Positions 1,001-55,400 of a stretch of DNA of 64,000 nucleotides are shown piece by piece. The notes under the pieces were generated by a model. The model did no database searches, was not told the origin of the DNA, and worked only from the letters and a program-made list of their open reading frames with translations. Within the stretch, counting starts at the first letter, position 1, and each line of letters opens with the position of its first letter. A program made the translations under genes and the position numbers. The stretch is from Verrucomicrobiota bacterium (GTDB lineage: Bacteria > Verrucomicrobiota > Kiritimatiellia > Kiritimatiellales > Tichowtungiaceae), in assembly GCA_016342445.1 (NCBI GenBank), contig JAEIOF010000001.1, positions 6,777-70,776 of the forward strand. Direction: 5' to 3'.

Positions 1001-3895
1001 ATGAGCAGTTTTGAATTAGTTCGCGAACAGGACATCCCGGAAGTCAACGGCACGGTGAAAACCTACCGCCACAAACCGACCGGTGCCGAGTATATTTCCG
1101 TCGAAAACGGCGACACCAACAAGGTGTTCGGTATCACCTTCCGCACCCCACCGTCCGACTCGACTGGCGTGGCCCACATCCTCGAACACTCCGTCCTGTG
1201 CGGCTCGCGCAAATACCCGCTCAAAGACCCCTTCGTCCAGCTTCTGAAAGGATCCCTGCAGACCTTTCTCAACGCAATGACCTACCCCGACAAAACGGTC
1301 TACCCCGTCGCCAGCGAGAACGAGCAGGACTTCTACAACCTTGTCGACGTCTACCTCGACGCCGTTTTCTTCCCGCGCATCACCCCCGCCTTCTTCCGTC
1401 AGGAAGGCTGGCACTACGAGCTCGAAAACATCGACGCCCCGCTCACCTGCAAAGGCGTCGTCTATAACGAAATGAAAGGCGTCTACTCATCCCCCGACAG
1501 CCTCCTGCTCGAACGCTCCCAGCAGGCGCTCTTCCCCGACATCACCTACGGCCTCGACTCCGGCGGCAACCCCGCCGAAATCCCGAACCTCACCTACGAC
1601 GCCTTCCGAACCTTCCACGAAACCTATTATCACCCATCCAACGCCCGCATCTTCTTCTACGGCGACGACGACCCCGCCCACCGCCTCAAAATCCTCGAGG
1701 GATATCTCGACGGCTTCCAATGTTTGGAAAATCCTCCGGATTCCTCCATCCCGCTTCAGACCCCTTTCGAAAAACCGATCGAAATCGAAGAGCCCTACGC
1801 CGTCAGCGAAGAAGACGGGAACGCCTTCATCACCGTCAACTGGGCTCTCCCCGACGGCATCCTCCACTTCGCCCTCATCATCCTAGACCAGATCCTCACC
1901 GGCACCTCCGGGTCGCCATTGCGCAAAGCCCTCATCGAATCCGACCTCGGCGAAGACCTCGCCGGCTTCGGCCTCGAAACCAACCTGCGCCAGCCCGCCT
2001 GGTCCATCGGCATGAAAGGCGTCGACGTTCCAAACCTTGGAAAAGTGGAAGGGATTATTTTCCAAACCTTGGAAAAACTGGTCAAAGACGGCATCGACCG
2101 AAACGACATCGAAGCCGCCCTCAACAGCTTCGAATTCGACCTGCGCGAAAACAACAGCGGATCCTGTCCGCAGGGCCTTTCCATCATGCTCAACATGATG
2201 GAAACATGGCTCTATGGGTGGAATCCTCTCGGCCTCGTCGCCTACGAACACCCGCTCGCCGAGCTCAAAAGCAAAATTTCCGAAAACCCCCGCTACTTCG
2301 AAGAGCTCATCCAAACCGCCCTGCTCGACAACACGCACCGCGCCACCATCAAGCTCGTCCCCGACGCCGACAAAGCCGCGCGCGACGAAGCGGAAGAACA
2401 AGCCCGCCTGCAGGCCGTCCGCGACCGGATGATCCCGGATGAGCTTCAGCAAACCGTCAACACCGCCGCGCGTCTGCTCGACATGCAGCAGACGCCCGAC
2501 TCGCCCGAAGCCGTCAAAACCCTGCCCCTGCTCAAACGCAGCGACCTCGACCCCAAAAGCCGAATCATCCCGCGCGAAACCGAAACCTTCGACAACGCCA
2601 CCGTCCTGTTCCACGACCTCTTCACCAGCGGCATCGTCTACCTCGACATTGGCTTCGACCTCCACACGCTCGACGCCGACGACCTCCCGTGGGTCTCCCT
2701 GCTCGGAAGCATGCTGCTCGAAATGGGCACGCAAAAAGAGGACTTCGCCTCGCTCGCCCTGCGCATCGCCCGTAAAACCGGCGGCCTCTACGCCACCCCC
2801 TTCCACGCGGCGCTCGAAAACAGCCCCGAAAGTGTCTGCCGCCTCTTCCTGCGCGGCAAATGCATGAACCACCAGCTGACCGACCTCTTCGACATCCTCG
2901 ACGACATCCTCTTCGCCCCCGCCTTCAACAACCGCAAACGCTTCCGGGAAGTCCTGCTCGAACAAAAAGCCGAAATGGAAAGCGGACTCATCCCCAGCGG
3001 ACACTCCGCCGTCCTCACGCGCATCAAAGCGCACGGACACGAAGCCGCCCGCGCCGCTGAAGCCATCAGCGGCATCGACGCGCTCTTCTTCCACCGCGAC
3101 ATGCAGAAGAAAATGAAAGAGGACTGGCCCGGCACCGTGGCGCGGATCGAAACCATCCTGCAAAAACTGCTCCGCGGCGGACTGATCGTCAACATCACCG
3201 CCGAAGGGAAAGACCGCGCGCCGATTTTCCAAACCCTGGAAAAATTCCTCGCAAAAGTTCCAAGCATTGGAAAATCCGGAGAAAAAAGTTCCAAAGGTTG
3301 GAAGTTTTCGGAAACACCGTCGAAATCTGAAGCGCTACTGATTCCCTCGCGCGTCAACTATGTCGGCCGCGGCATCAACCTGTTCGACAACGGCTATAAA
3401 ATGGACGGCTCGGCGCTGGTCATCACCAAATACCTGCGCACCGCGTGGCTCTGGGAAAAAATCCGAGTACAGGGCGGTGCCTATGGCGCGGTCTGCTCCT
3501 TCGATGCGCACTGCGGGTCGTTCGCCTTCGCCTCCTACCGCGACCCCAACCTCGCCGTCACCCTCGACGTCTACGGACAGACCGCCGACTTCCTGAAAAA
3601 TCTCACGCTCGACGAAGACGAACTCTCCCGCGCGCTCATCGGAACCATCGGTTCTATCGACGCCTACCTGCTTCCCGATGCCAAAGGCTACACCGATATG
3701 GTTCGCTACCTGGCCGGCATGACGGATGAAAAACGGCAGATGCGCCGCGATGAAGTGCTCTCGACCACCGCCGAAGATTTCAAGGAGTTCGCCGAATTCC
3801 TCAACATGGGCAACGCCGTCACCTCCGTCCTCGCCTCGCCCGAAGCGATCAAAGAAAGCGGACTGGAATTCCAAAGCACCTTGCGGGTTTTATAA
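1001..3895 (+). CDS. M16C family zinc metallopeptidase (PreP / presequence-protease-like)
   Basis: 964-aa ORF. It has the inverted zincin motif HILEH inside HILEHSVLCGSRKYPLKDPF and a length typical of M16C PreP-type enzymes. It carries six in-frame copies of the TTCCAA-N3-TTGGAA palindrome. Confidence 0.9.
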   Translation: MSSFELVREQDIPEVNGTVKTYRHKPTGAEYISVENGDTNKVFGITFRTPPSDSTGVAHILEHSVLCGSRKYPLKDPFVQLLKGSLQTFLNAMTYPDKTVYPVASENEQDFYNLVDVYLDAVFFPRITPAFFRQEGWHYELENIDAPLTCKGVVYNEMKGVYSSPDSLLLERSQQALFPDITYGLDSGGNPAEIPNLTYDAFRTFHETYYHPSNARIFFYGDDDPAHRLKILEGYLDGFQCLENPPDSSIPLQTPFEKPIEIEEPYAVSEEDGNAFITVNWALPDGILHFALIILDQILTGTSGSPLRKALIESDLGEDLAGFGLETNLRQPAWSIGMKGVDVPNLGKVEGIIFQTLEKLVKDGIDRNDIEAALNSFEFDLRENNSGSCPQGLSIMLNMMETWLYGWNPLGLVAYEHPLAELKSKISENPRYFEELIQTALLDNTHRATIKLVPDADKAARDEAEEQARLQAVRDRMIPDELQQTVNTAARLLDMQQTPDSPEAVKTLPLLKRSDLDPKSRIIPRETETFDNATVLFHDLFTSGIVYLDIGFDLHTLDADDLPWVSLLGSMLLEMGTQKEDFASLALRIARKTGGLYATPFHAALENSPESVCRLFLRGKCMNHQLTDLFDILDDILFAPAFNNRKRFREVLLEQKAEMESGLIPSGHSAVLTRIKAHGHEAARAAEAISGIDALFFHRDMQKKMKEDWPGTVARIETILQKLLRGGLIVNITAEGKDRAPIFQTLEKFLAKVPSIGKSGEKSSKGWKFSETPSKSEALLIPSRVNYVGRGINLFDNGYKMDGSALVITKYLRTAWLWEKIRVQGGAYGAVCSFDAHCGSFAFASYRDPNLAVTLDVYGQTADFLKNLTLDEDELSRALIGTIGSIDAYLLPDAKGYTDMVRYLAGMTDEKRQMRRDEVLSTTAEDFKEFAEFLNMGNAVTSVLASPEAIKESGLEFQSTLRVL
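1715..1729. repeat. TTCCAA-N3-TTGGAA iterated palindrome, 1 copy (in the M16 peptidase, read as FQCLE)
   Basis: TTCCAATGTTTGGAA read directly. Confidence 0.95.
2028..2074. repeat. iterated palindrome, 2 copies 32 bp apart (M16 peptidase: VPNLGK..FQTLEK)
   Basis: TTCCAAACCTTGGAA at 2028-2042 and at 2060-2074. Confidence 0.95.
3227..3303. repeat. iterated palindrome, phased array of 3 copies with a 31-bp period (M16 peptidase: FQTLEK..VPSIGK..SKGWK)
   Basis: TTCCAAACCCTGGAA at 3227, TTCCAAGCATTGGAA at 3258 and TTCCAAAGGTTGGAA at 3289. Confidence 0.95.
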
Positions 3896-5354: not shown

Positions 5355-7394
5355 CTAACGATTCTTCTTCATCTTGCGCCCTGTATACAAAATCTTTTTC
5401 TTTTCAGGCTCGAATTCCGGAATTGAAATGGTGGATTTGAGTTCGTAGAGCTCGTCGCGAAGGATGGCGGCGCGCTCAAACTCCAGTTTTTCGGCCGCTT
5501 CGAGCATTTCCTGCTCAACTTCGCGAATCGCCCGGTTCAGATCATAGGTTTCGCCGGTTTCGCGGACCACAAGCTCTTCCAGCTCTTCGGCCCCCTTCTT
5601 CATCGCCTGCAAACTGTCCTGAATTTTCGACCGGATTGCCTGCGGGGTGACGCCATGCGCCTCGTTATAGGCGATCTGATTTTCACGGCGATGGCGGGTC
5701 ACGTCCATCATCCGCCGCATCGAGTCGGTTATACGATCTGCATAGAGAATCACCCGTCCGCCCAGATGGCGGGCGGCGCGGCCTGCGGTTTGTACCAGCG
5801 AAGTTTCCGAGCGCAAAAAGCCCTCTTTGTCCGCATCGAGAATGGCAACCAATGACACCTCCGGCAAATCAAGCCCTTCGCGAAGCAGGTTAATGCCGAT
5901 TAAACAATCGAACTCCCCCAGCCGCAGGTCGCGCAGAATATCGACCCGCTCCAGAGCCCCGATATCGGAATGGAGATACTGCACACGCAATCCAACCTTC
6001 TTCAGGTAATCAGTCAAATCCTCGGCGGTGCGCTTGGTGAGCGTGGTCACCAGCGTCCGCTCACCCTGCTCGGCACAGGCACGAATCTCCTCCATCACGT
6101 CGTCAATCTGCCCGGTGAGCGGACGGACATCAACCGGCGGGTCGATGATGCCGGTCGGGCGAATAATCTGCTCAATCGGCGCGCCGCCCTCCTGCCGTTC
6201 GAAGGCGCCGGGCGTGGCGGTGGTAAAGATCATCGGGCCGGTGATGTTGAGGAACTCGTCAAACGCCAGCGGACGATTATCGAGTGCCGACGGCAGACGA
6301 AAGCCGTGCTCGATCAGGGTTCCTTTGCGGGCCTGATCGCCGTTAAACATGCCGCGCACTTGCGGAAGCGTCACATGCGACTCATCGACGATGGTGAGAA
6401 AATTTTCGGGGAAGTAGTCGATCAGGCAGGCGGGCCGCTCGCCCGCTTCGCGGGCGCCGAGATGGCGGGAGTAGTTTTCAATGCCACCGCAATAGCCGAT
6501 CTCGCGCATCATTTCGATGTCGTACATCGTCCGCATCCGGATGCGCTGGGCTTCGATCAGCTTGTCGTGATCTTCAAACCACTGAATCCGCTCTTTCAGC
6601 TCGGCCTCGATGCGGGCGATGGCCGGTTCAAGTTTTTCAGCCGGCATCACAAAATGCTTGGCGGGCGAAATCATGATCCGGTCGAGCACGTCCTCGACAT
6701 CCGCCGTCAGCGCGTCAATTCGTTTGATCGACTCCACCTCGTCGCCGAAAAAAGCAATGCGGATGCCGTGGGTCGCATAGGATGGAAACACATCGACGGT
6801 GTCGCCGCGCACGCGGAACGTTCCGGGCGTCGTGTCGTAATCGTTACGCTCATATTGAATCGCCACCAGCTTTTCGAGCATCGCGTCGCGCCCGCACTCC
6901 TCGCCGACATGAGCGGAAAAAACCATCTCGCGGTAATCCTCCGGCGAGCCGAGGCCGTAGATGCAGGAGACCGATGCGACGATGATCACATCGTCGCGGC
7001 TGAGCAGGCTGTCGGTTGCCGCCAGCCGCAGACGCTCAATCTCGGCGTTAATGGAGGCGTCCTTCTCAATAAACGTGTCGGTCTGCGGGATATAGGCTTC
7101 AGGCTGATAATAGTCGTAATAGCTGATAAAAAACTCGACCGCGTTGTGGGGGAAAAAGGATTTCAGCTCCGAGTAGAGCTGGGCGGCGAGCGTTTTATTG
7201 TGGGAGATCACCAGCGCGGGCTTTCCCTGCTTCGCAATCACATTGGCGATGGTGAACGTCTTGCCTGAGCCGGTCACCCCTTCCAATGTTTGGAAACGCT
7301 GCCCCGCCTCCAGCCCGGCGCACAGCGCCTCAATCGCCGCCGGCTGGTCACCGGTCGGCTGATAATCTGAAACAAGCTGGAAGGTTGAACTCAT
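5355..7394 (-). CDS. uvrB: excinuclease ABC subunit B
   Basis: 679-aa ORF with Walker [11 protein letters not shown], helicase motifs and a C-terminal UVR domain (..[17 protein letters not shown]). Confidence 0.97.
7281..7295. repeat. iterated palindrome, 1 copy inside uvrB directly upstream of Walker A
   Basis: TTCCAATGTTTGGAA, read on the coding strand as F-Q-T-L-E in [14 protein letters not shown]. Confidence 0.95.
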
Positions 7395-7435: not shown

Positions 7436-7516
7436 TTTAACCACTAATCTTCACTGATCCGCACTCATCACAAAGGCCGTTCCATTAGTGGAAATTAGCA
7501 AAGATTAGTGGTTAAA
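7436..7516. promoter_or_regulatory. 16-bp perfect inverted repeat with three ATTAGTGG boxes in the divergent uvrB-ettA promoter region
   Basis: TTTAACCACTAATCTT (7436-7451) pairs with AAGATTAGTGGTTAAA (7501-7516), leaving a 49-nt loop. ATTAGTGG occurs at 7484-7491 and 7504-7511, and inverted at 7441-7448. TTCCA-TTAG-TGGAA lies at 7480-7493. Confidence 0.5.
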
Positions 7517-9259: not shown

Positions 9260-9316
9260 GGTAGGGACAGACCGCTGGGCTGCCCGCTTCGGAGCGCTCG
9301 GCGATCGCGCCCTACC
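9260..9316. repeat. GC-rich REP-like imperfect hairpin downstream of ettA
   Basis: GGTAGGG (9260-9266) pairs with CCCTACC (9310-9316). The enclosed region contains the palindromes GAGCGCTC and GCGATCGC. A TTCCAAACATTGGAA copy abuts it at 9318. Confidence 0.5.
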
Positions 9317-11575: not shown

Positions 11576-11684
11576 TTCCAATGGTTGGAAAAAATTTCAC
11601 CACGAAATACACAAAACACACGAAAGTTTCCAATGCTTGGAAAAAAGTCGAAATATCCAACGTAGTTGGTTCCAACGATTGGAA
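11576..11684. repeat. iterated palindrome, 3 intergenic copies plus one degenerate copy (DUF1456-nuclease divergent region)
   Basis: TTCCAATGGTTGGAA at 11576, TTCCAATGCTTGGAA at 11628 and TTCCAACGATTGGAA at 11670. A degenerate TCCAACGTAGTTGG lies at 11656. Confidence 0.95.
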
Positions 11685-14952: not shown

Positions 14953-16293
14953 CTACGCGTCCACACACTCGCTCTTCAGGCGGCACACTTCTCGGGCGAA
15001 CAACTCGCCGCGCTCATTAAAACTGCGAAACTGATCAAAGCTGGTGCACGCGGGAGAAAGCAGCACAGTATCACCCGGTTCTGCACTCTCCCACACGGCG
15101 CAGACAGCCTGTTCCAGCGTTTCGCAGGGCAGACACTCAACTGAATCCGCCCAAGCCGCCTGCATCGCCTCGGAAGCTTCCCCGATAAGATATAGACGGG
15201 AAACCTGCTTCACCAGTAAATCTTTTGCAAAACTAAGATCCGTCTCCTTGGCCCGCCCTCCCGCGATCAAATGAACAGGTCCCGACACCATCCGGAGCGC
15301 CGCGCACATCCCCGCCAGATTGGTGGCCTTGGAGTCGTCGATAAATCTGACGCCGTTGATTTCCGCTACGGTCTCCATCCGGTGCGGCAATGGCTGAAAG
15401 GCGCGGGCCGAGGCCTCCACTGCGGACGGCGACAGGCCGCACGCCTCGCAAACCGCCGCAACGGCCGCGCCCGCCGCACCGAGCACCTTGTTGTCAAAAC
15501 AGGTTTCCGTCAGATCGATCTCGCCCACGTGTCCGCCGGCAAAACGGTAATCCGCGCCCTCTTCCGTCCCGAACGTTTTCGTAACGGCGCTGCGTCCTGC
15601 GTCAGGGCCCCAAGATTCAGGAACGTTTCGGCCCATTGTTCCAAGGCCTGGAACTTTTTCACCGGATTTTTCCAACCCCTGGAAAAAGTCAAAGGGCAGG
15701 ATCGCGGTATCCGAGCGCTGCATGTTTTCGAACAGCCGCAACTTAAACGCGCGGTAGGTTTCCATATCGCCGTGACGATCGAGATGGTTGGGAAGCACAT
15801 TGAGAAGCACGCCGATGTCAGGACGGAACTGCTCGATGGTTTCAAGCTGGAACGAGCTGACTTCGATCACAAGCCAGTCTGGGATTTCGGCGAGCATGAC
15901 CGCCGCGGAAACCGGCAAACCGTAGTTGCCGCAGGGAATCGCCCGCTGTCCGGCCTGCGCCAGCGCATCCACAATCCATTTAACGACCGTGCTCTTGCCG
16001 TTGGATCCGGTGACGGCGATGACCGGGCAATGGCGGCGCGACCAACCGAATTCGAGTTCTGAAAGAAGCGGGATTTCGCGGGCAATCAAATCCTGAATCC
16101 ACGGATGATCCAGAGAAAAGCCCGGACTGACGACAGCGATCTCGGGGGTGAAGTGGAGGTCTTCGTAGCGATAGTCGGGGGTGGTCTCTTCGCAAATGCA
16201 CACAGCCGGCGTGCCGTCCGTGCGCAACAGCGCTTCAGCGGCCCGCCCGCTGCGCCCGGCACCCAAAACTAAAGCTTTTTTGTATTGATGCAT
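14953..16293 (-). CDS. murD: UDP-N-acetylmuramoylalanine--D-glutamate ligase
   Basis: 446-aa ORF with the Mur ligase P-loop VIAVTGSNGKSTV, in dcw context. It contains a probable insertion (FFQGLEKSGEKVPGLGTMGRNVPESWG..) encoded by two palindrome copies. Confidence 0.93.
   Translation of the reverse strand: MHQYKKALVLGAGRSGRAAEALLRTDGTPAVCICEETTPDYRYEDLHFTPEIAVVSPGFSLDHPWIQDLIAREIPLLSELEFGWSRRHCPVIAVTGSNGKSTVVKWIVDALAQAGQRAIPCGNYGLPVSAAVMLAEIPDWLVIEVSSFQLETIEQFRPDIGVLLNVLPNHLDRHGDMETYRAFKLRLFENMQRSDTAILPFDFFQGLEKSGEKVPGLGTMGRNVPESWGPDAGRSAVTKTFGTEEGADYRFAGGHVGEIDLTETCFDNKVLGAAGAAVAAVCEACGLSPSAVEASARAFQPLPHRMETVAEINGVRFIDDSKATNLAGMCAALRMVSGPVHLIAGGRAKETDLSFAKDLLVKQVSRLYLIGEASEAMQAAWADSVECLPCETLEQAVCAVWESAEPGDTVLLSPACTSFDQFRSFNERGELFAREVCRLKSECVDA
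15639..15684. repeat. composite unit of two palindrome variants with a 16-nt spacer, inside murD
   Basis: TTCCAAGGCCTGGAA at 15639 and TTCCAACCCCTGGAA at 15670. The whole 46-nt unit resembles 3258-3303 in reverse complement. Confidence 0.9.
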
Positions 16294-17439: not shown

Positions 17440-18720
17440 TTATGATTTGAGTTCTTCAAGAATTGTTTCGAGCTTTTCGCCGCGCGAGGCCTTAAGGAGC
17501 ACCCTATCACCTGCTCTTAAAATTTCACGCAAAAGTTTAACGGCGGTCGATTTTTCGACTCCGACAACCCCTTCACACCCGATTTGCGTACCTGATTCGC
17601 CAATCGTAATGACGCCGTCGAACTTCAGGGAATCGACGAACCGCCCCAGCTCGCGGTGCTCGACGTCGCTGTCCGCGCCCAGCTCGCGCATCCCGCCGAG
17701 CACAACAAATTTCCGCCCCGTGCAGGGAAGCTCCGCGAATGCGGAAAGAGCCGCGCGCATGGAGAGCGGGTTGGCGTTGTAGGCATCGTTAATGAAAACC
17801 ACCCCGCCCTGTTCGCTTTCTTCCCAGCGCATGGGGGCTGGACGAAAGGCGTCGAGCCCCGCCTGAATCTCTTCAGGGGCAAGACCCAGCTCCAGCCCGA
17901 GCGTCGCGGCAAAGCGCGCATTTTGAACCATGTGCGCACCGGGTTGCGAAATACGAAAGGGCTCCCGGGTTAACACGACAACACGCCCCTGAAAACCGGC
18001 TTGAAGCCGATCGAACCACTCCGAATCGGCATCGAGGATCGCTTTCGAAGCGTGGTTGAGAATCGCCGCTTTCTCGCCTGCAATCCTTTCCAATGTCTGG
18101 AAATTTTTATCACGCCCCGGCTCAGTCGGCTGGAAAAACTCGGTATGGGCTTTCCCAATGGTTGTAATCACGGCCCAGTCCGGTTTCAGCAGACCCGCCA
18201 ACCGACCGATTTCGCCGGGATGATTCATTCCGAGTTCAAAAACGAAGTAGTCGGCGGAGCGGTCGGCGGCCATCATACTGAGCGGCAAGCCGATATCGTT
18301 GTTCCAGTTGCCGATGGTTTTGGCAACGCCCCCCTTCTGCGCCAGCACCGAGGCGACCAGCTCTTTGACGGTGGTCTTTCCGGCGCTGCCGGTGATTCCG
18401 ATCACGGTGCCCGTCCACTCGCGACGTACGCCCTCGGCCATCTGCCATAAAGCCTCAAGCGTGTCGGGGACAATCAGCTGCGGAGTTCCAAACATTGGAA
18501 AAAATTCCTCAACGATAAGACCGGCCGCGCCCTTTGCAACCGCTTGCGCGACAAAGTCGTGCCCGTCGTGGATTTCACCTTTAATGGCAATATACACATC
18601 GCCCGGTTTCAACGTCCGGGTGTCGTGAGAAATTCCAAGGATTGGAACCAACTGCGTTGGATTTTCTGAATTCTTCCAAGCATTGGAAGTCCAACTTGCG
18701 AGTTCAGCGAAGGAAACCAT
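17440..18720 (-). CDS. murF: UDP-N-acetylmuramoyl-tripeptide--D-alanyl-D-alanine ligase
   Basis: 426-aa ORF with the P-loop GITGSAGKTTVKE, in dcw context. It carries four in-frame palindrome copies. Confidence 0.93.
   Translation of the reverse strand: MVSFAELASWTSNAWKNSENPTQLVPILGISHDTRTLKPGDVYIAIKGEIHDGHDFVAQAVAKGAAGLIVEEFFPMFGTPQLIVPDTLEALWQMAEGVRREWTGTVIGITGSAGKTTVKELVASVLAQKGGVAKTIGNWNNDIGLPLSMMAADRSADYFVFELGMNHPGEIGRLAGLLKPDWAVITTIGKAHTEFFQPTEPGRDKNFQTLERIAGEKAAILNHASKAILDADSEWFDRLQAGFQGRVVVLTREPFRISQPGAHMVQNARFAATLGLELGLAPEEIQAGLDAFRPAPMRWEESEQGGVVFINDAYNANPLSMRAALSAFAELPCTGRKFVVLGGMRELGADSDVEHRELGRFVDSLKFDGVITIGESGTQIGCEGVVGVEKSTAVKLLREILRAGDRVLLKASRGEKLETILEELKS
18088..18102. repeat. 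iterated palindrome variant, 1 copy in murF (FQTLE)
   Basis: TTCCAATGTCTGGAA. Confidence 0.9.
18486..18500. repeat. iterated palindrome, 1 copy in murF (FPMFG)
   Basis: TTCCAAACATTGGAA. Confidence 0.95.
18633..18688. repeat. iterated palindrome, 2 copies in the murF 5' end (SNAWK..VPILG)
   Basis: TTCCAAGGATTGGAA at 18633 and TTCCAAGCATTGGAA at 18674. Confidence 0.95.
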
Positions 18721-22318: not shown

Positions 22319-23244
22319 ACTGTCATCTCCTTTTCCACCACCCGCAATTTCGCCGAACGCGCGCGCGGGTTGTCCGCCAATTCCTGTTTCGTGGCAGTCA
22401 CCGGTTTTCCGGTAATTCGTCGTACTGCCGGTTCGTCATAAACTAATTTTTCACCACCCTGCTGAAGCGACTCGCGCTTCACGGTGTGGCGTTTAAAGCA
22501 TTCCTTCACCATCCGGTCTTCCAGACTATGGAAGGTGATCACAGTCATCCGTCCGCCCGGGCGAAGCATCGAGAGGCCCGCCTCCAGGCCGGTCTCCAGA
22601 CTTTCCAGCTCGGCATTGACTGCCATGCGAAGCGCCTGAAATGTCTGGGTGGCCGGATGAGTCGGCCCGCGGCGCCCGCCGACGGCTTTTTCAACAATCG
22701 CGGCCAACTCGAGTGTCCGCTCGATCCGACCCGTTTTACGCGCCTCCACAATGGCGCGGGCAATCCGGCGCGATTTGCGCTCTTCGCCCAATCGATAAAT
22801 CACATTGGCGAGCGTCTCTTCATCCTCTTCGTTCACCCAGTCGGCGACCGAACGGCCCTGCGTTTGATCCATGCGCATATCGAGCGGGCCGTCCTTACCG
22901 AAGCTAAATCCGCGTTCCGCGACATCAAGCTGCGGCGAGCTGACGCCGAGGTCGAGGAGCACCCCGTCCACTTCCGTCACACCGATCGTTTTGCAAAGCT
23001 CTTTCATATCCGCAAAATTTCCATGAATCCGCTGCACCTGATTTCCAAACCCCTTCAACCTCTCCGCCGTCTGCATGATGGCCTCCGCGTCGCGATCCAG
23101 CCCGATCAACCGTCCGTCCGGCGAAAGCCGTTTTAAAATTTCCAGTGCATGTCCGCCGCGCCCGAGCGTCCCGTCGATGTACGTTCCTGCCGGATTGGTA
23201 ATCAGCAGATCCAACGTTTCGTTCAGCAATACCGGAACATGCAT
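22315..23244 (-). CDS. rsmH: 16S rRNA (cytosine1402-N4)-methyltransferase
   Basis: 309-aa ORF starting MHVPVLLNETLDLL..DGTLGRGGH.., the typical RsmH/MraW signature, in dcw context. Confidence 0.95.
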   Translation of the reverse strand: MHVPVLLNETLDLLITNPAGTYIDGTLGRGGHALEILKRLSPDGRLIGLDRDAEAIMQTAERLKGFGNQVQRIHGNFADMKELCKTIGVTEVDGVLLDLGVSSPQLDVAERGFSFGKDGPLDMRMDQTQGRSVADWVNEEDEETLANVIYRLGEERKSRRIARAIVEARKTGRIERTLELAAIVEKAVGGRRGPTHPATQTFQALRMAVNAELESLETGLEAGLSMLRPGGRMTVITFHSLEDRMVKECFKRHTVKRESLQQGGEKLVYDEPAVRRITGKPVTATKQELADNPRARSAKLRVVEKEMTV

Positions 23245-31837: not shown

Positions 31838-32899
31838 TCAGACCAATTCAGCAAACACTGAATCGCTCACAAAAAGAGCCTCTTCGGAAAGCCGGACGCG
31901 CCGTCCCTCGATCACCAGCAACCCCTGTTTTTCCAATGCTTGGAAACATTCGCCGAGATGTTTCCAGCCACTGGAAGAAACCTTCACGCCCGCCAGAAGC
32001 CGCAACCCCATCACCCGCGTCTCGCGCTCCTTCGCCTCCGGACCGAGCGTTTCCTCGAACTCTCGGCGCGGGCCGTTGGCGCAATAATCGTCCAGATCGG
32101 ACACATTCGCCCAGCGCACCCCGTTCCAGTGCGAATGGGCCGCCGGGCCGCAGCCGATATATTCGCCACCCGTCCAGTAGAGCAAATTGTGGCGGCACTC
32201 GAAGCCCGGCTTCGCAAAATTTGAAATCTCGTAATGCACAAACCCCGCCGCGTTCAGCCGCGCACGGATCCGGTCGTACATCTCGCGCTCGAGATCTTCA
32301 TCCAGCCGATCGAGCCGCGCCTCCATCGGGGTCCCCGCTTCGTACATCAAGTTATAAATCGCAATATGCTCCGGCCCGAGGGCAAGCGCACGATCGAGAT
32401 CGGACTCCAACATCTGCATTGTCTGACCCGGCACGCCAAACATCAGATCGACACTCATGTTTTCAAAACCCACCCTGCGCGCCAGCCGAAAGGCCGCTTC
32501 CGCCTGCTCCGCCGAATGAATCCGCCCCAGCGTTTCCAGACATTGGAAATCAAACGACTGCACCCCGACCGAAAGCCGGTTCACACCGCTCCGTTTCAAC
32601 AGCGCCAGCTTGGCTTCATCAACGGTTCCCGGATTAACCTCCACCGAAAACTCCATCGGACGGAATTTTCCAAGGCTTGGAAGAAACTTTTCCAATGCCT
32701 GGAAACCCGGGGCGGTCGGCGTGCCGCCGCCGATAAAAACGGTCTCCGGCGCGAAGTCCGGCGGCAACCCGCTCAGCTCTTTTTCCAATGTTTGGAAAAA
32801 CCGCTCCTGTTTTTTCCAATCATTGGAAACAACGGAGTAGAAAGCGCAGTAGGAACACTTGCGCTCACAAAACGGAATATGAATGTACAGACCTGACAT
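31838..32899 (-). CDS. hemW: radical SAM heme chaperone HemW (coproporphyrinogen III oxidase-like)
   Basis: Radical SAM motif LYIHIPFCERKCSYCAF. The ATG at 32899 (MSGLYIHIPFC) is preferred because the tracked start at 32968 would overlap the divergent tlyA. The gene carries seven palindrome copies. Confidence 0.85.
   Translation of the reverse strand: MSGLYIHIPFCERKCSYCAFYSVVSNDWKKQERFFQTLEKELSGLPPDFAPETVFIGGGTPTAPGFQALEKFLPSLGKFRPMEFSVEVNPGTVDEAKLALLKRSGVNRLSVGVQSFDFQCLETLGRIHSAEQAEAAFRLARRVGFENMSVDLMFGVPGQTMQMLESDLDRALALGPEHIAIYNLMYEAGTPMEARLDRLDEDLEREMYDRIRARLNAAGFVHYEISNFAKPGFECRHNLLYWTGGEYIGCGPAAHSHWNGVRWANVSDLDDYCANGPRREFEETLGPEAKERETRVMGLRLLAGVKVSSSGWKHLGECFQALEKQGLLVIEGRRVRLSEEALFVSDSVFAELV
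31931..31976. repeat. iterated palindrome, 2 copies in the hemW 3' end
   Basis: TTCCAATGCTTGGAA at 31931 and TTCCAGCCACTGGAA at 31962. Confidence 0.9.
32534..32548. repeat. iterated palindrome variant, 1 copy in hemW
   Basis: TTCCAGACATTGGAA. Confidence 0.9.
32668..32704. repeat. iterated palindrome, 2 copies 22 bp apart in hemW
   Basis: TTCCAAGGCTTGGAA at 32668 and TTCCAATGCCTGGAA at 32690. Confidence 0.95.
32783..32828. repeat. iterated palindrome, 2 copies with a 31-bp period in hemW
   Basis: TTCCAATGTTTGGAA at 32783 and TTCCAATCATTGGAA at 32814. Confidence 0.95.
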
Positions 32900-32944
32900 G
32901 ATTGCCGATTGTAGATTGTCGATTTGCGATTTACACTCACTCAC

Positions 32945-37675: not shown

Positions 37676-38466
37676 TAAATGATCTCCGTCAAATTGTCAT
37701 CCATCGCCAGCATCCGACCCGTTTCCAAGGTTCGGAAAAGTTCCCCGTCCTGCCATTTGCTCAGGCGGTAGAGCGTGGCGAACGCAAAGTCCGGCACCGC
37801 GCCGCCCTGCCCGCCGACGAGTTCGCCGCCGCGGCGGACATTGTCCTGCATCCATGCCGGAAGCAGCAGGTGATAGGGATTGCGCGCCACTTCCTCAACG
37901 TGCAGCGAGGTCGCCGCAACCAGATCGGCCAGCGTCTGCGCATCGGCCTCAACCATCAGGTTGGGATCGTCCATCGCGCCCCAGAACTCGGCTTCAATCA
38001 CCGTGCAGGAAAAATCAGACGGCATTTCCGCCAGGGCTTCCATCACCAGAAAATGGGTGGCGATGTGGCGCGAGTTCCAATCCTTGGAATGCGGGAAAAA
38101 GAGGGCCTTGGGCTGCACCGCTTTCAGAATCTCAACAAGATCCTGTTTTTCCAGATTCTGGAAGCCGTTGCGTTGCTGAATGCCCCATCCCAGGTAATCG
38201 CAGGCGTCTTGGAGTTCGGCGGCACGGCCGGGCTGGCGCTCGACATTGCTGCCGAAGGTGACGGGAACATTGATGATCTGCATTCCGGCTTCACGCATCA
38301 GCCGCAACGGAAGCAGGCCGGTAATGCACTCATCATCCGGATGCGGAGAAAAGAGCAGAACCTTTTTGTCCGATTCGACCGGCGCGGTTTTTCCTTCAGC
38401 AACCAGCCCCTTGGCCGATTCGACATTGGCCTGAATGTTTTCAACAAATTTCAGATACGGGTTCAT
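37675..38466 (-). CDS. PIG-L/LmbE family N-acetylglucosaminyl deacetylase
   Basis: 263-aa ORF with the family motif LLFSPHPDDECITG. It is translationally coupled to its neighbours (ATGA and TAATG overlaps). Confidence 0.8.
   Translation of the reverse strand: MNPYLKFVENIQANVESAKGLVAEGKTAPVESDKKVLLFSPHPDDECITGLLPLRLMREAGMQIINVPVTFGSNVERQPGRAAELQDACDYLGWGIQQRNGFQNLEKQDLVEILKAVQPKALFFPHSKDWNSRHIATHFLVMEALAEMPSDFSCTVIEAEFWGAMDDPNLMVEADAQTLADLVAATSLHVEEVARNPYHLLLPAWMQDNVRRGGELVGGQGGAVPDFAFATLYRLSKWQDGELFRTLETGRMLAMDDNLTEII
38075..38163. repeat. iterated palindrome, 2 copies in the PIG-L deacetylase gene
   Basis: TTCCAATCCTTGGAA at 38075 and TTCCAGATTCTGGAA at 38149. A degenerate TTCCAAGGTTCGGAA lies at 37723. 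Confidence 0.9.
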
Positions 38467-39830
38467 GCTTTTCCTCCGATCATCGGAAGGCTGGCGGCGG
38501 CGACCGCCTGCCCGTGCCGTTTCATCTGTTCATCGGGCGTCGTGATGCTGATCTTTTCAGCCAGCGAAGGAAACTCCGCGCGCAAAACTGCTTCAGCTTT
38601 TTCAATAATGATCTGCCCGCCCTCGCCGCTGGTGACGCGTCCAAGGATAAGCAGATTACGGAAATCGTAGAAGTCGGAATAGTGAGCAATCGTGTAGCCG
38701 AAGCAGACGCCGATGGTTTCGTAGATCTGGCGGGCGCGCTGGTCGCCTTCGGCCATCAGGCGCTGCACCTCGACGAGCTGCTCAGCGAACGGCGTGTCCG
38801 CGGGAAACTCGATTCCGGCCAGCGGGGCAAGACGCGCCACGCCTTGCTGAGAGAAGAACTGCACGCCGCAGCCGGCGTCGCCGGACCACTCGTCGACGGG
38901 GCCGTTTTCGCGATAGTCGACCGGAACAAAGGCCAGTTCATTAAGCCAGGAGGTGATGTTGCCTTCGGGCGTCACATAACCCGCCGCGAGGCTGGTGCCC
39001 ATAGAAATGCCGAGTACCGCATCGTCTTTGAGCGACATTGCCCCGGCCAAGGCGGTCACTTCGCCGTCGTTGACCACATCGAACGGGATACCGCCCCATG
39101 CTTCTTTGAGCTGCTTGAAAATAGGGCGCACCTTTTCTTCGAACTGGTCGTCCGGCACGCCGCGGAAAAGCGACGCCACGCGCACTTCGTTATTCACATA
39201 GACGCCCGCCGCGCTGCCGCCGATTGCATCAACCCGAGGAAGGTGCTCCGCCGCCCGTTTGAGCGAGGCCATCGTGCCTTCAAAATGATACTGCGGATTC
39301 TTCTCAAAATAGGGATCCCATTTGATCTCTTCGGAGAAGACCACTTCGCCGTCGATGACGGCGGCGCACTTGCGGTCGGAACCGCCGAGGTCGAAGCCGA
39401 TGCGGCAGCCGTCGAGATGCCGGCCGAGAGCCGCGCCCTCCTGCGAGGGTTCCGGAATTTCATCCGCCGCCGCTTTTTCAATTTTCAGCGCATGGTCGTA
39501 AATTTTTTCACCGATGATTTCGGAGTCGAAGCGGCCGATAGCCGAAGCGGAATAATGTTTTTCCAACCTTTGGAAAATTTCGTCCGGTCCGGCAAACAGA
39601 ACGCGATTGCCGCCGATCGCCCAGAGCATTGCTTTGAGCAGGCGTTCCAAATATTGGAAACTCCGGTCGACATCCGACAGAACCTTCAGCGTACGCCGCG
39701 CCACAACCTTGTCGTTGCGGAACAATCCGATCGTCACAGCATCGGAACTGTTTTCGGCCTCCTGCTCGAATGACCGGTTCCAAAGAACCGCCGGAACAAA
39801 CTCAGAATCTAGAATCGGTTTTATTTTCAT
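38463..39830 (-). CDS. ASKHA-superfamily sugar kinase (ROK/BadF-like) with an N-terminal extension
   Basis: 455-aa ORF with the phosphate-1 motif IGFDLGGSDRK and later glycine-rich ATP motifs. It is the first gene of the amino-sugar operon. The substrate is not determinable from sequence. Confidence 0.6.
   Translation of the reverse strand: MKIKPILDSEFVPAVLWNRSFEQEAENSSDAVTIGLFRNDKVVARRTLKVLSDVDRSFQYLERLLKAMLWAIGGNRVLFAGPDEIFQRLEKHYSASAIGRFDSEIIGEKIYDHALKIEKAAADEIPEPSQEGAALGRHLDGCRIGFDLGGSDRKCAAVIDGEVVFSEEIKWDPYFEKNPQYHFEGTMASLKRAAEHLPRVDAIGGSAAGVYVNNEVRVASLFRGVPDDQFEEKVRPIFKQLKEAWGGIPFDVVNDGEVTALAGAMSLKDDAVLGISMGTSLAAGYVTPEGNITSWLNELAFVPVDYRENGPVDEWSGDAGCGVQFFSQQGVARLAPLAGIEFPADTPFAEQLVEVQRLMAEGDQRARQIYETIGVCFGYTIAHYSDFYDFRNLLILGRVTSGEGGQIIIEKAEAVLRAEFPSLAEKISITTPDEQMKRHGQAVAAASLPMIGGKA
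39561..39659. repeat. iterated palindrome, 2 copies in the ROK-like kinase gene
   Basis: TTCCAACCTTTGGAA at 39561 and TTCCAAATATTGGAA at 39645. Confidence 0.95.
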
Positions 39831-51707: not shown

Positions 51708-52417
51708 TTCGGGTCTCCCTTCAGATCGAGCAAAGCATACTCTTCAATCAAATGATAGTCGGTGGCGGACAAGGCCGGTGCCATGGAAAGCTCCGGATCG
51801 GACAGATCCTCCGAGTTGTAGTTGTAGCGCCCGCAGAAGACCGTCCATTTCGTGCCCTCGCCCCACCCCGCGCCAAGCGCGGTAAGTTGCGAGGCCGGGA
51901 CGAACATCCGCGCTTTCCAACCCTTGGACCTGAGGTATTCCGAAAGTGCTTTTGGTATTCCCAAAAGAAGAGAGCGAAGCGAACGGCAACGAGGCTGAGC
52001 CTCCACCCTGTTATTCTTCCAAGGTTTGGAAAATTCTATGCTCGTAACTTCCAGACATTGGAAATCATGTTCGTTCAGCGCTTGCTCCGGGGTAAGTTCC
52101 GAGGGCCATTCCGGAAAAAAAAGCGTTGTTTTGTTGCCGAACGGCGTGGCGTACATTTCCCACTTGTAAGGCGCATGCAGCGGCTTCACAAACAACTCCA
52201 GCACATCGCCGGTCTGATAATGCAACTGCTGGTCCTCCCGGTTCTGCTGAATCAGACAGGAGTCCTCCAGTTCGGCAGAAACATACAGGCCGGACTCATC
52301 CCACGCAAAGCGGACGGTCGCGCCTTCCTTCGGCGAGCCTTCACAATCGTTACTGAACGCAAACGGATAAACAGGGCCATACTCCGGATAACGGGCGGCT
52401 TCAAAAACAGGTCTCAT
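51704..52417 (-). CDS. CBM9-like / DOMON-like carbohydrate-binding domain protein
   Basis: 237-aa ORF with ..ATVRFAWDESGLYVSAELEDS.., the pattern I associate with the family 9-like binding domain. It contains a repeat-encoded insertion (FQCLEVTSIEFSKPWKN..). Confidence 0.5.
   Translation of the reverse strand: MRPVFEAARYPEYGPVYPFAFSNDCEGSPKEGATVRFAWDESGLYVSAELEDSCLIQQNREDQQLHYQTGDVLELFVKPLHAPYKWEMYATPFGNKTTLFFPEWPSELTPEQALNEHDFQCLEVTSIEFSKPWKNNRVEAQPRCRSLRSLLLGIPKALSEYLRSKGWKARMFVPASQLTALGAGWGEGTKWTVFCGRYNYNSEDLSDPELSMAPALSATDYHLIEEYALLDLKGDPK
52017..52063. repeat. iterated palindrome, 2 copies 32 bp apart in the CBM9-like gene
   Basis: TTCCAAGGTTTGGAA at 52017 and TTCCAGACATTGGAA at 52049. 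A degenerate TTCCAACCCTTGGAC lies at 51915. Confidence 0.9.
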
Positions 52418-52418: not shown

Positions 52419-55400
52419 CTAATCCCCTAAAACTGAAACAGTAAAATCTTTATACCGCGCGGACTTCATCCACATGTGGCGCAGGCCGATACGGCCTTCG
52501 GTTACTTCACCGATCAGCGGCGACTGCCAGGCAAAGAGCTTTTCCTGTCCGTCGCCCGCCACATTGAAGAACAACCGGCTGCCTTTTTTGATGGCCGTAA
52601 TGTGATAGGTCTTACCCGTGCGGAACAGTCCGGTGCGGAATGAGTCAGGTTTGATTTCGGTTTTGGAAAATTCACCGTCATCCGCTTTGGGATAGCGGCG
52701 GCAACGGACATAGTCGTCGTCCGGCCCGTTGTCATCCGCGCCGTAAGCGGCATAGCTGATATGCAGAAGCTTCATGGTTTCGAAATAGTTTTTCATCCAC
52801 GGTTCTTTGCGGACCTCCGCCCAGTCCATGATATCGGGAGCAAACTCGCCGCCCTTGCCGGTAGCTTCGATGTAGAGAATGTTCACCCACTTATTGATGT
52901 CATCGAGCCGGGTATATTCATACTCGATTTTCAGGTCGCCCTGAAACGAATCCTTCGTCCACAGCACGGCATGGTGCGCGTGGTTCCACTCCTCGGAGCC
53001 GGCCGAAAACTCCAGACCGTCCGCAATGTCGGTAATCCTGGCGAACTCGCCGTCGAGTTTCCAATCCTTGGAACTTTTTCCGGAGAACACCGGCTTCCAG
53101 TTAAGGGCTTTTGCCGCTTCAAACAACGCCTGATCTTCGCCCATCTCTAATTCAACCTCCATTGATGCGCCATCCTTGCATTTCACCGTCAGCAGCGTCG
53201 AATCGCCTGCGGCTTCCGTCCAGGCCGGCGCGGAACCTTTAATTTTCCACAGCCCCTTCAGCCGCAGCGTCACCGAGGCCTCTTTGGACGGACCGTTAAA
53301 GTGCCCCTTCACCGGATCCTCTTCCTGATTGAGGTCGGGATTTGCCACCGACACCTTCAGCAAATCAGCCTCCTGGATCATCACATAGCAAGGGACTGAA
53401 ATCGACTCCAGCAATCCCTCCTTCAACCCGCCGGCTTCGAAACAGGCATAGGCCGTTGTGGACTCCCACTCCACCACGTGCGCCTGATTATCCTGTCGGC
53501 GAATTGAAAACGGTGTGTCCCGAGGTGCCGACGTTCCAACCATTGGAAAAACCACATAGGCATACGAGGCGTTTTTCGAAGCGGCACCGTGGTCGATCCA
53601 GGCTTTGGCAAACAGGCCGGACGCGTCGGCCTTCGCGCCTTTTTTACCTTCGCCTTTGCGCAGCGAATATTTGTTATTGGGCGACGACTGCTCCCCGACG
53701 GTAATGACCGGCTCCGCGCCGTCGAGAATCTTATAGCCGTTACCGATCGGGTCGAACAGCCAATCGCCCTCGCGCCGCACCGCTCCATCGATTGGCTTAA
53801 TGCTGTTCTGAAACAGCGTGGTATGCACCGGGGCGGACGGATCGTCTGATTCAATTCCGGAACCGAGGCAGAGAATCTGTTCACCGAAACAGAAGACCGA
53901 TTTACGGGCTTTCAATTTCCCGGGGAACGACATTTTCTCCTTCACGGGATCGATAGTGAAGCCGTCGCCTTCATTGAGCTTCATAGCCCACACCCCGTTG
54001 CCGTCGAGCGAACAGCCGCCAGCGTAGGATTCCTCGGACTTGAACATAACCAGCGGCGCCTCGGGTTCGAGCTCGGCGAACGGCCGCTCAATGGTGGTCG
54101 CGCCCGGCGGATGGTTCCAATCCCAGCCGTCCTCGGTATAGCCAGCCTCCTTTTGGGACAGATTCGGCAGGACCTGAACGACGCCGCTGGACTGATAACG
54201 TCCGTAGCGGTTGTCGAGATTGTAGATTTCCGAGGCCCAGACATACTTGCTATAGCCCTTGATATTCACCGACCAGTCGGCGCGGCGATGAACCGAAAGC
54301 GCGGCGTAAGGAAAGGTCCAGTGACCGTTCGGCGGCTCGGTGTTGAGGTTGCATGTTGCGAACAACGCTTTCGCGACTTGATCGTTTGGAACGCCCCACA
54401 AACGCTGGTACGCTGCGGCCACCTCGGCATCCAGCGGTTCGGCCCCATCAGGGGTTCCGCTCAGAGCGAGTTTAAGATAGGCCTCGCCCAGAGATTTAAT
54501 GGAGCCGCCCAGCGGATGGCGCCCGGCCTGACCCAGGCCGTAACAGAACGGATTACTGTAAAGGGTGGCGGCCAGCATCGCCTTTTTAAAATTGGAATGC
54601 CCGGCCTCATCAATCCGGAAAGATGTTCCGGAAAGCGCATAGAACGTAATCGGGATTCGATCGAAGGCGCCGGTTGCATAAGCCGGATAGTGTCCCCAGT
54701 GATGCCACGCGGTGCCGTCCGGCTTAAACCCGCCGGTGCTGTCTGTCAGAGCCAGTGAATATGAAAGATGAGCCGAATACGCTTTCAGAAGAGCAGACTG
54801 ACGGCCCGGATCGGCCGGAAGCAGCGCGACCATCAGGCGGAACGCCGATTGGGTGTTGTAATAATCGAGGTTGGCCTCGAACGTCTCCTGCGGCATCAGC
54901 ATTTCACCGCAATCGAGCATCCAGAGCGTGGTATCGCCGATATCGTCCAACAGCCCTTCCTCGGCCAGAACCTCTTTCATCAGAAAAAAAGAGGTCATCA
55001 ATTCCCGCAACTGATATCCGAAATGATGCATTGTGCCGAGCGAACTTCCGGCACACCAGCCCTGATCCAGAACATAATGGCAAGCCGCGGCATATACCCG
55101 GCCCAGTTCCGCACGGGCAGACAGATCAACGGTTGACCGATACTCGTTGGCCAGCTGAAGCATCCGTATTCCGAAAGGTCGGACGACGATATACTCCGGC
55201 TTATCGTCCAGCCCCAACTCGTAACGAACCGGAGAAACCTGCACGTCCAGCCGCAGCGGAACAGGGGAAAAGCCGACGGCTCCGTCTTCCGCCAGAATTC
55301 CATCATCCACCAGTTTGCTACGGTACCAGTCCGCGCCGAAAAGCTGTTTGGATTTTTTGAAATACTCGTCAATCAGCCGGAGCCGGATGGTTTCCAGCTC

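Follow-up and report, generated by a model that had tools for sequence, protein, structure and literature searches.

We describe here a 15-bp interrupted palindrome, with the core TTCCAA-NSN-TTGGAA, that recurs throughout a 64-kb stretch of DNA (hereafter the window, part of a 165-kb metagenome contig) from a Verrucomicrobiota bacterium of the order Kiritimatiellales. Neighbouring copies are separated by whole turns of the double helix (two, three, four and more), three turns being preferred, and lie on the same helix face. The motif is confined to one clade, and it groups with HIP1 (highly iterated palindrome 1) of cyanobacteria, the uptake signal sequences (USS) of Pasteurellaceae and the DNA uptake sequences (DUS) of Neisseriaceae as a hyper-abundant genomic word. 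What is new compared with these three is a long interrupted palindrome, an arrangement in discrete helically phased arrays, and a clearly visible effect on protein sequence. In the reading that we favour, to which we give roughly an even chance, the motif would be bound, as duplex DNA and in very many copies, by a symmetric protein able to oligomerise on one helix face; the geometry would resemble that of Lrp or SeqA.

The abundance of the motif is extreme. Indeed, TTCCANNNNNTGGAA (also written TTCCAANSNTTGGAA) has 40 exact matches in the window, where dinucleotide-preserving shuffles average 0.10 and never exceed 2, i.e., an excess of about 400-fold, and its copies are scattered along the chromosome at a density of ~0.6 per kb. 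The stricter form TTCCAANNNTTGGAA is present in 27 exact copies, while 15 others carry one mismatch. When all palindromes with 5-bp arms and gaps of 0 to 8 were scanned, no second hyper-abundant palindrome was found in the window. In the literature that we searched, we found no description of the motif string, of any Kiritimatiellales palindrome, or of Tichowtungia methylation relevant to the motif.

Most copies are grouped, since 26 of the 40 (65%) stand in arrays with gaps of at most 55 bp. The array from which this work started lies at 3227..3303, in an M16C/PreP-like peptidase gene (1001-3895, plus strand), and consists of TTCCAAACCCTGGAA, 16 nt, TTCCAAGCATTGGAA, 16 nt and TTCCAAAGGTTGGAA, translated as FQTLEK, VPSIGK and SKGWK. 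The original prediction, made from this DNA alone, had listed start-to-start distances of 31 and 31 bp for this array (3227/3258/3289), of 31, 31 and 42 bp for a second one (26036/26067/26098/26140), of 31 bp for two pairs (15639/15670 and 32783/32814) and of 32 bp for two others (2028/2060 and 52017/52049). All of these values are correct, as are the peptides that it quoted for the peptidase and for the gene at 25849-26955 (FQTLEK, FPMLGK and FSNVWK). It had overlooked one further 31-bp pair, at 31931/31962, whose second copy is a TTCCAG variant. The rotation of consecutive copies through the reading frames, to which it had drawn attention, is present as claimed; this is plain arithmetic, because 31 leaves a remainder of 1 on division by 3, and it has no significance of its own.

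Neighbour distances of up to 150 bp in the window (n=21) are 31 bp (seven times), 32 bp (twice), 22, 40, 41, 42, 42, 52, 74, 84, 93, 134, 136 and 147 bp. All are near multiples of 10.4 bp, with a Rayleigh R of 0.90 at that period. We then looked at other assemblies, by searching one genome per species for two strict copies at any start-to-start distance from 20 to 50 bp, which yielded at least 117 eight-kb loci (designated L) from at least 46 assemblies. Among the matches listed, and with ranges running from the strict to the relaxed form of the motif, the following pair distances were found:

21-22 bp: 15-23 pairs
30 bp: 4 pairs
31 bp: 90-105 pairs
32 bp: 71-76 pairs
33 bp: 4 pairs
41-44 bp: 9 pairs
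any other distance within the equally eligible 20-50 bp range: 0 pairs

The 30-33 bp class thus makes up about 85% of these spacings. The distribution is not flat: the excess at 31-32 bp that had been anticipated from the window is found across the at least 46 assemblies, together with the other whole-turn classes. The neighbour distances of 51-260 bp (n=16), on which the search exerted no selection, have their Rayleigh maximum at the same 10.4-bp period (R = 0.75, p ~1e-4, phase 0). Degenerate copies (up to 3 mismatches), which played no role in the search either, cluster at 22, 31-32, 40-43, 52-53, 61-64, 73-74, 84 and 93-94 bp from exact copies. The largest arrays contain six copies, with spacings of 31 bp repeated five times in L051 and of 22-31-31-30-22 bp and its mirror image in L045 and L100. 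A period of 10.4 bp is the helical repeat of B-form duplex DNA, and not a property of codons, RNA or protein. The same-face geometry put forward in the original prediction is strongly supported, with spacings at two, three, and four or more turns and a fitted period of 10.4 bp.

Preferred spacings and flanks appear to differ between lineages (L055:3292-3372, L057:334-411, L038:6885-7025, L067:987-1125, L069:3862-3972). A 42-bp spacing, often with GC hairpins in the spacers, is seen in two contigs of one Tichowtungia sp. metagenome-assembled genome (MAG), and L069 uses a 32-bp spacing throughout. The 21-22 bp GTTCCAA...TTGGAAC units of L055 and L057, which come from bins not labelled Kiritimatiellia, resemble ordinary tandem repeats; we left them out of the system, and they may be unrelated to it.

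The anatomy of the site also points to the duplex. Alignment of 119 pairs at 31 bp and 80 pairs at 32 bp gives a symmetric extended consensus of ~25 bp, AAWTT-TTCCAA-NSN-TTGGAA-AAWTT, in which the central base (position 7) is G or C, with 0% A/T. In 31-bp arrays, this leaves just about six GC-rich unconstrained positions between adjacent extended sites. A fully symmetric centre T-S-A is favoured in many genomes; TGA and TCA are the commonest centres across genomes (153/485) and make the site a perfect 7-1-7 palindrome. Such a symmetry suggests recognition of duplex DNA by a reader, or dimer, of two-fold symmetry. A palindrome could also be read as a hairpin of RNA or single-stranded DNA, acting in transcript stability or termination, or as a transposase or replication signal. 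The flanks can indeed extend the stem to 9-10 bp, the folds have z-scores of -2 to -3.6, and symmetric flank positions are complementary above expectation. On the contrary, RNA folding of the copies is weak (-4 to -7 kcal/mol), and no Rfam family was detected in the window at gathering thresholds. The complementarity of positions 6 and 8 disfavours this reading, because the 7-1-7 palindrome would need a 1-nt loop, which cannot form. We rejected flank complementarity as evidence for a hairpin, as it is confounded by differences between lineages (TTTCCAA...TTGGAAA versus GTTCCAA...TTGGAAC). With a 10.4-bp phase, a feature of the duplex, added to this, we regard the hairpin as highly improbable.

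The constraint acts on DNA, overriding both codon usage and amino acids. In the window open reading frames (ORFs), the peptide FQxLE is observed 17 times for 0.2 expected from amino-acid frequencies, i.e., an excess of ~80-fold, and S[KN]xW[KN] 8 times for 0.1. Taken alone, this excess could reflect selection for peptide motifs such as FQxLEK in the host proteins. The codons refute this: the palindrome encodes 16 of the 17 FQxLE peptides, where 2.7 are expected from codon usage, and all 8 of the S[KN]xW[KN] peptides, although CAA accounts for 21% of glutamine and TTG for 15% of leucine codons in the window. Because nearly all FQxLE peptides use this one rare combination of motif codons, selection at the peptide level is excluded. 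Moreover, the same DNA is read in three frames, on both strands and between genes, the residues at these positions differ in outgroup orthologues, and outgroup proteins show no excess (4 observed versus 2.3 expected, in ~237,000 codons). The probability that we leave to peptide selection is negligible.

Comparison with homologues that lack the motif indicates how the copies came about. The array region of the M16 peptidase is equal in length in motif-less orthologues, and the window sequence FQTLEKFLAKVPSIGKSGEKSSKGWKF aligns with the outgroup sequences VMASVDRFLETLPSGSSVRPAPWKP and FQPEVHEFLDHLPAMEPKSEAWSP. The motif-less ancestor already had the pattern F/V..L/V.E/D.FL..LP........W, from which a few substitutions led to three sites exactly 31 bp apart. 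In the same way, HemW aligns without gaps to E. coli HemN (1OLT) across its motif copies. These alignments show that the copies are products of substitution, in coding sequence that stays colinear, and not of insertion. The spacing was therefore selected or driven, and was not inherited from a duplicated 31-bp unit. The opposite scenario is a mobile or tandemly duplicating 31-bp unit, such as a miniature inverted-repeat transposable element (MITE), a repetitive extragenic palindrome (REP) or a minisatellite, which would insert into genes and restore the frame after three copies (93 bp). It finds some support in the near-identical spacers of a few arrays, e.g., 81-88% in L056 and L101, and in the other MITE-like elements that insert beside copies; tandem duplication did enlarge a small number of arrays (L056, L101, L030). 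Nevertheless, the mean identity of adjacent spacers within arrays is 0.53, compared with 0.38 when spacers are paired at random, and no more than 5 of the 36 adjacent pairs reach 75%, the other 31 being unrelated. Pairs (62 bp) and four-copy arrays (124 bp) stand within intact ORFs, spacings of 22, 32 and 42 bp misfit a fixed unit, and the M16 and HemW arrays are colinear with their motif-less homologues. This largely refutes the scenario, which we hold to be most unlikely. An insertional palindromic element of the Rickettsia palindromic element (RPE), MITE or REP type was rejected on the same ground, that no indel is seen at the M16 arrays or in HemW versus HemN.

We placed the array on an AlphaFold model of the M16 peptidase (mean pLDDT, or predicted local distance difference test score, of 67.5). 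Copies 2 and 3 fall in a 25-residue coil (751-775, pLDDT ~67), and copy 1 ends a helix (736-750). The coil is also an insertion site in orthologues. Several of them carry, in frame and exactly between copies 2 and 3, a GC-rich element of 24-76 amino acids (L137:9756-9875; orthologues P0004, P0024, P0028, P0036-P0038, P0042 and P0061). It contains hairpins, is bounded by the terminal inverted repeats CCCACCCCG...CGGGGTGGG, and its translation reads PTPASGHPSQGGES..IPSCGGVPNGRGGF or IRVHSRSFAV. The element looks like a MITE, and its insertion may favour the palindrome array, or the loop in which this lies, as a target.

Sites are often kept between relatives, while their centres change. All five relatives that bear the motif (74-93% protein identity) have copy 1 of the M16 array, and copies 2 and 3 have been gained or lost. 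The syntenic relative L216 has 88.6% nucleotide identity to the window, and 79.8% at third codon positions. Six of the eight alignable sites persist in it, and 2 of the 80 fixed positions differ versus 7.1 expected (binomial p ~0.02), i.e., the sites are conserved between relatives. Of the 24 positions in the free centre triplets, 9 differ, against a background divergence of ~9%, and two triplets change at all three bases while the arms remain intact (TGT versus ACC and AGG versus GCC, at 1715 and 3289 of the window; L216:4529-equivalent and 6103). From these alignments, the turnover of the centre suggests multi-base replacement events or a very relaxed constraint.

Such shifts would fit an origin of the motif as a by-product or partner of a DNA methyltransferase or repair system, as proposed for HIP1. 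An enzyme specific for CCAN5TGG, or for the full palindrome, would act with a biased very-short-patch repair or with a reader of methylated sites, and a SeqA-like two-site reader would give the spacing. Every copy contains CCA-N5-TGG (e.g., 3229-3239), which we take to be an interrupted-palindrome type II pattern of the PflMI/Van91I type; its 3-nt overhang would fall on the variable centre triplet. Exact matches outnumber near-matches, as this scenario would have it. Against it, biased repair alone predicts neither helical phasing nor arrays, and restriction-modification sites are usually avoided in genomes rather than enriched. We consider it quite unlikely, even though HIP1 itself has been linked to orphan methyltransferases (PMC4390886).

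The taxonomic range of the motif is narrow. The window peptidase shares 73% identity with the Tichowtungia aerotolerans enzyme and 57% with its Pontiella desulfatans counterpart, and we compared motif density in 80 loci recovered through the peptidase gene, as follows:

L136, L137, L138 and L140 (M16 identity 74-79%): 0.33-0.57 motifs per kb
L139 (Ga0265293_10000060; M16 identity 71%): none in 22.9 kb
L141 (Pontiella-like; M16 identity 59%): one copy, and degenerate copies at orthologous positions
L198 (GC 0.60; M16 identity 48%): one typical 31-bp pair, L198:13083-13128
L142-L215 except L198 (M16 identity at most 56%): none in ~800 kb in total

In 22.9 kb of the T. aerotolerans genome (CP047593, L217), 4 copies are exact and 13 are near matches, the M16 array included, and no motif was found in the 22.9 kb examined of cultured P. 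desulfatans (L218). No substitute palindrome takes its place in L139 or in the outgroups, where none reached 5 copies. Among the matches listed in the search for pairs, nearly all assemblies are labelled Kiritimatiellia, Lentisphaerae or Verrucomicrobiota. Such a patchy occurrence on the tree suggests that the system behind the motif has been gained and lost, or transferred. In T. aerotolerans, a type I-C-like CRISPR-Cas locus (clustered regularly interspaced short palindromic repeats; cas3, cas5d, csd1, cas7, cas4, cas1 and cas2, L217:15888-22889) lies ~3 kb downstream of the M16 gene and is unrelated to the arrays.

In the window, 34 of the 40 copies (85%) are located inside ORFs, where every reading frame and both coding strands are used, and the remainder are intergenic. 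Besides the three-copy M16 array, they are distributed as follows:

1715..1729, M16 peptidase gene: single copy, translated GFQCLEN, with orthologous copies in L136, L137, L138 and L140
2028..2074, M16 peptidase gene: pair at 32 bp, translated VPNLGK and FQTLEK, kept in L137 and L138 and absent from L139 and the outgroups
7281..7295, uvrB (5355-7394, minus strand): single copy, 136 bp (13 turns) from 7417, kept in L216
7417..7431, between uvrB and the ABC-F gene: intergenic copy, 132 bp upstream of the ATG at 7549, adjoining an inverted repeat (7436-7516), kept in L216
9318..9372: intergenic pair at 40 bp, 131 and 91 bp upstream of the ATG at 9449
11576..11684: intergenic three-copy array at 52 and 42 bp, upstream of the gene at 11760, its last copy adjoining a terminator-like hairpin
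15639..15684, murD (14953-16293, minus strand): pair at 31 bp
18088..18102, murF (17440-18720, minus strand): single copy
18486..18500, murF: single copy, 147 bp (14 turns) from 18633
18633..18688, murF: pair at 41 bp
22519..22533, rsmH (22315-23244, minus strand): single variant copy, TTCCAGACTATGGAA
26036..26154, gene without Pfam match beside glmM (25849-26955, minus strand): four-copy array at 31, 31 and 42 bp, translated FSNVWK, FPMLGK, FQTLEK and FQRLEQ
31931..31976, hemW-like radical SAM gene (31838-32968, minus strand): pair at 31 bp
32534..32548, hemW: single copy, 134 bp from 32668, in a region gapless versus E. coli HemN
32668..32704, hemW: pair at 22 bp (2 turns)
32783..32828, hemW: pair at 31 bp, 93 bp (3 x 31) from 32690, with no indel versus HemN (1OLT)
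38075..38163, PIG-L-like gene (37675-38466, minus strand): two copies at 74 bp (7 turns)
39561..39659, gene at 38463-39830 (minus strand): two copies at 84 bp (8 turns)
52017..52063, unannotated ORF (51602-52444 on the plus strand or 51704-52417 on the minus strand): pair at 32 bp
53059..53073, PL8 polysaccharide lyase gene (52419-56057, minus strand): single copy
53534..53548, same PL8 polysaccharide lyase gene: single copy
61052..61066, sulfatase gene (60964-62427, minus strand): single copy

Position along genes shows no clear preference (13, 13, 8, 12 and 5 in five equal bins). The intergenic copies adjoin other repeats, namely an inverted repeat at 7436-7516 (TTTAACCACTAATCTT...AAGATTAGTGGTTAAA), a hairpin element at 9260-9316 (ggtagggacag...cgcgccctacc) and, at 11685-11712, the terminator-like hairpin GCAGGCTGAGCCTGC followed by a T-run. 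In a Tichowtungia sp. MAG (L038), a palindrome copy and this same terminator-like hairpin are fused. The intergenic copies at 7417, 9318, 9358, 11628 and 11670 stand at near-equal distances from the start codons of three unrelated genes (132, 131, 132; 91, 90 bp), which could be due to chance or to a promoter-proximal arrangement.

Copies are ~4 times denser in the housekeeping part of the window than in its accessory part. The first (1-40 kb) holds 35 copies in 40 kb, in 19 clusters, and comprises the genes for the peptidase, uvrB, ABC-F and ftsW, the division and cell-wall cluster murD-mraY-murF-murE-ftsI-rsmH-mraZ, glmM, citrate synthase, glmS, ribosomal proteins, hemW and tlyA. The second (40-64 kb), which includes polysaccharide-utilisation genes, holds 5 copies in 24 kb, in 4 clusters, among genes for an AraC regulator, two secretins, the PL8 lyase, a chondroitinase B, a fucosidase and sulfatases, and no copy lies between 39660 and 52016. 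With clusters as the unit of counting, this contrast reaches only marginal significance (chi-square ~4.1, p ~0.04).

A bias toward core genes would fit an uptake sequence of the USS or DUS type, if the competence machinery, or a step after it, preferred motif-bearing DNA and recombination then spread the motif over the core genome by molecular drive, the arrays deriving from a multi-site receptor. Several other observations agree with this: a density close to that of such sequences (~0.6 per kb), a very sharp core, intragenic sites in all three frames, clades that differ in the presence and in the variant of the motif, and sites gained by replacement, with no indel. Transformation is also the process in which HIP1, the closest analogue, is now argued to act. 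On the other hand, uptake does not predict the 10.4-bp period or the phased arrays that contain 65% of the copies, and uptake-driven recombination does not predict copies on a phage contig. Known uptake sequences are non-palindromic and asymmetric, spaced more evenly than random, unclustered and not helically phased; they are tolerated in coding DNA in preferred frames, form clade dialects and accumulate by substitution or recombination. In addition, we know of no report of competence in Kiritimatiellales. An uptake function therefore seems unlikely to us, while deserving to be kept in mind. Both uptake and methylation would still need a multi-site reader to explain the phasing.

Copies on viral contigs bear on another possibility. 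Five of the 16 loci found in a scan of viral contigs are of the Kiritimatiellales type (L006, L010, L011, L014 and L018, on 4 contigs). L005, L007, L008, L012, L016 and L017, with other flanks and spacings of 28 or 45 bp, were set aside as probably unrelated operators. The phage-like contig IMGVR_UViG_3300035698_006241, with ORFs that resemble terminase and portal genes (judged by sequence, not by family search), carries host-type arrays of 3 and 4 copies with 31-bp spacing (L010 and L014, contig 3429-3505 and 4521-4638). One of its arrays lies inside a small ORF resembling a helix-turn-helix protein. The presence of the motif on this contig could be a signal of host linkage, or phages may benefit from carrying it. 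In the latter case, the motif might be a self-marker that protects resident DNA from a host nuclease or defence, Chi-like without orientation, and that phages were selected to acquire. The host-type phage arrays and the enrichment in long-resident core genes would agree with such a role. It is, to our mind, very improbable, as essentially one phage contig is concerned, which could be a prophage or could have drifted to host composition, neither 15-bp palindromes nor phased arrays are known from any comparable system, and no defence genes are linked to the arrays.

Among known systems, HIP1 (GCGATCGC) is also a hugely over-represented palindrome, mostly intragenic, conserved beyond neutral expectation and lineage-specific, with a debated function for which nucleoid structure, methylation and transformation have been proposed. 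As for HIP1, the sites described here are over-represented, occur within and between ORFs, and are conserved across genomes. The differences lie in the hosts, here Kiritimatiellales and not cyanobacteria, and in the word itself: HIP1 is 8 bp long and uninterrupted, has a reported periodicity of 10-90 kb and is recognised by DmtA and DmtC in cyanobacteria, whereas the present motif, different in sequence and phylum, spans 15-25 bp with a free centre and forms discrete arrays at 21, 31 and 42 bp with a period of 10.4 bp. The over-representation of HIP1 ranges from 15- to 300-fold genome-wide (PMC5861425).

USS and DUS resemble the motif in their frequency (about one per kb), sharp core, occurrence in coding DNA, clade dialects and spread without insertion. 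They differ from it in that the present core is palindromic and not asymmetric, and that 26 of its 40 copies stand in tight phased arrays instead of being evenly spread. RPE, REP and bacterial interspersed mosaic elements (BIME) are likewise repeated palindromic DNA. RPE (~100-150 bp) can sit in frame in genes, and BIME clusters are regularly spaced and bind nucleoid proteins; RPE are inserted and REP are extragenic, whereas the present copies are 15 bp long, made by substitution and mostly intragenic. The label "iteron-like" of the original prediction suits the sites poorly, as they are palindromes, dispersed at ~0.6 per kb and away from a replication origin. Iterons, direct repeats of ~17-22 bp that cluster at replicon origins and are bound by a Rep initiator, were rejected because the copies are inverted-repeat palindromes across housekeeping genes, over the 64 kb and in at least 46 assemblies. 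A CRISPR array, with repeats of 23-50 bp, unique spacers of about the same length and, as a rule, cas genes nearby, was rejected as well: here a 15-bp repeat alternates with a 16-bp spacer, the 2-6 units lie inside ORFs, and there are no cas genes in the window.

For the geometry, the closest parallels are found among DNA-binding proteins. SeqA of enterobacteria binds genome-wide and within genes, and needs at least two same-face GATC sites up to about three turns apart. Its site differs in being 4 bp long and dependent on hemimethylation, without a strong preference for exactly three turns, and no comparable rewriting of proteins is known for it. Operators of the Lrp/AsnC family (Ss-LrpB, FL11) are palindromes of 13-15 bp, and the three-copy 31-bp array has exactly the Lrp geometry. 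The 15-bp palindrome and its spacings of 21-22 and 30-33 bp match the Lrp pattern, with 41-44 bp in addition; its G/C centre, near-invariant arms and ~85% intragenic location do not match the AT-rich centre, degeneracy and promoter location of Lrp sites. Lrp-family dimers occupy clustered semi-palindromic sites of 13-15 bp on one helix face, with centres two or three turns apart, bind cooperatively and wrap ~100 bp of DNA (PMC2995911).

Taken together, the 10.4-bp period, the zero phase, the two-fold symmetry, the AT-rich shoulders and the three-turn preference argue for a multimeric reader of duplex DNA working from one face. From these features we infer a binder, its symmetry, its oligomerisation and its biological role. 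A symmetric, probably dimeric, sequence-specific protein would read the site, and bound neighbours would interact when they lie on the same face, three turns (31-32 bp) being strongly preferred and two, four or more tolerated. Arrays of 2-6 sites could thereby assemble into a higher-order, possibly wrapped, nucleoprotein complex. Sites are made and kept by substitution at the DNA level wherever the encoded protein tolerates them, i.e., at helix ends, in loops and in amphipathic FxxLExF stretches. The role would most likely be genome-wide, such as nucleoid organisation or the marking of resident DNA, rather than the regulation of single genes.

Several observations weigh against this protein-binding reading. 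We found no candidate binder when we sought a recurring neighbour: the ORFs flanking the 12 largest arrays are unrelated to one another. The motif is also much sharper than sets of operators (27 exact versus 15 one-mismatch copies in the window). Such sharpness is typical of driven motifs (USS, DUS and HIP1) or of enzymes with exact recognition, so that a driven origin, of the uptake-sequence or HIP1 type, could also account for it. The G/C centre contrasts with the AT-rich centre of Lrp-type sites. Thousands of tight sites in essential genes would obstruct transcription and replication unless binding were weak or regulated. Lastly, the housekeeping enrichment and the phage copies would be explained equally well by a mutational or recombinational drive over residence time. 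It is because no binder was found, and because of the sharpness, the core-gene enrichment and the phage arrays, that we see the chances of the favoured reading as about balanced. The original prediction had preferred cooperative binding to a mutational hotspot; the geometry and the phasing side with it, while the binding would still have to be deduced from them, and a driven origin could be at work.

In its boldest form, the protein-binding reading would mean that a clade of Kiritimatiellales possesses a sequence-directed chromatin-like system, in which an oligomeric protein sits on thousands of phased arrays, and selection for the arrays has rewritten codons and residues of essential genes (giving peptides such as FQxLEK, FPxxGK and SKxWK). 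The protein and its sites would have been gained as a unit, as related clades lack the system entirely. We put this forward as a tentative possibility, more probably wrong than right.

Few hyper-abundant words of the HIP1, USS, DUS or Chi kind exist, and every one of them has brought to light a basic genome-wide process, even if there is still, after 30 years, dispute over what HIP1 does. The motif described here adds an example from a different phylum, with a stronger mechanistic clue, since the 10.4-bp phasing and the three-turn preference point to a multimeric duplex reader. The question can be addressed in a cultured carrier of the motif, Tichowtungia aerotolerans, where phase-dependent cooperative binding is testable. 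The motif is also a sharp taxonomic marker, which could aid binning and phage-host linking in metagenomes. A DNA-level constraint that reshapes proteins is relevant to codon models, to analyses of nonsynonymous versus synonymous substitution rates (dN/dS) and to the annotation of these genomes. Finally, if the motif affects DNA uptake or maintenance, genetic tools for this clade could be improved.

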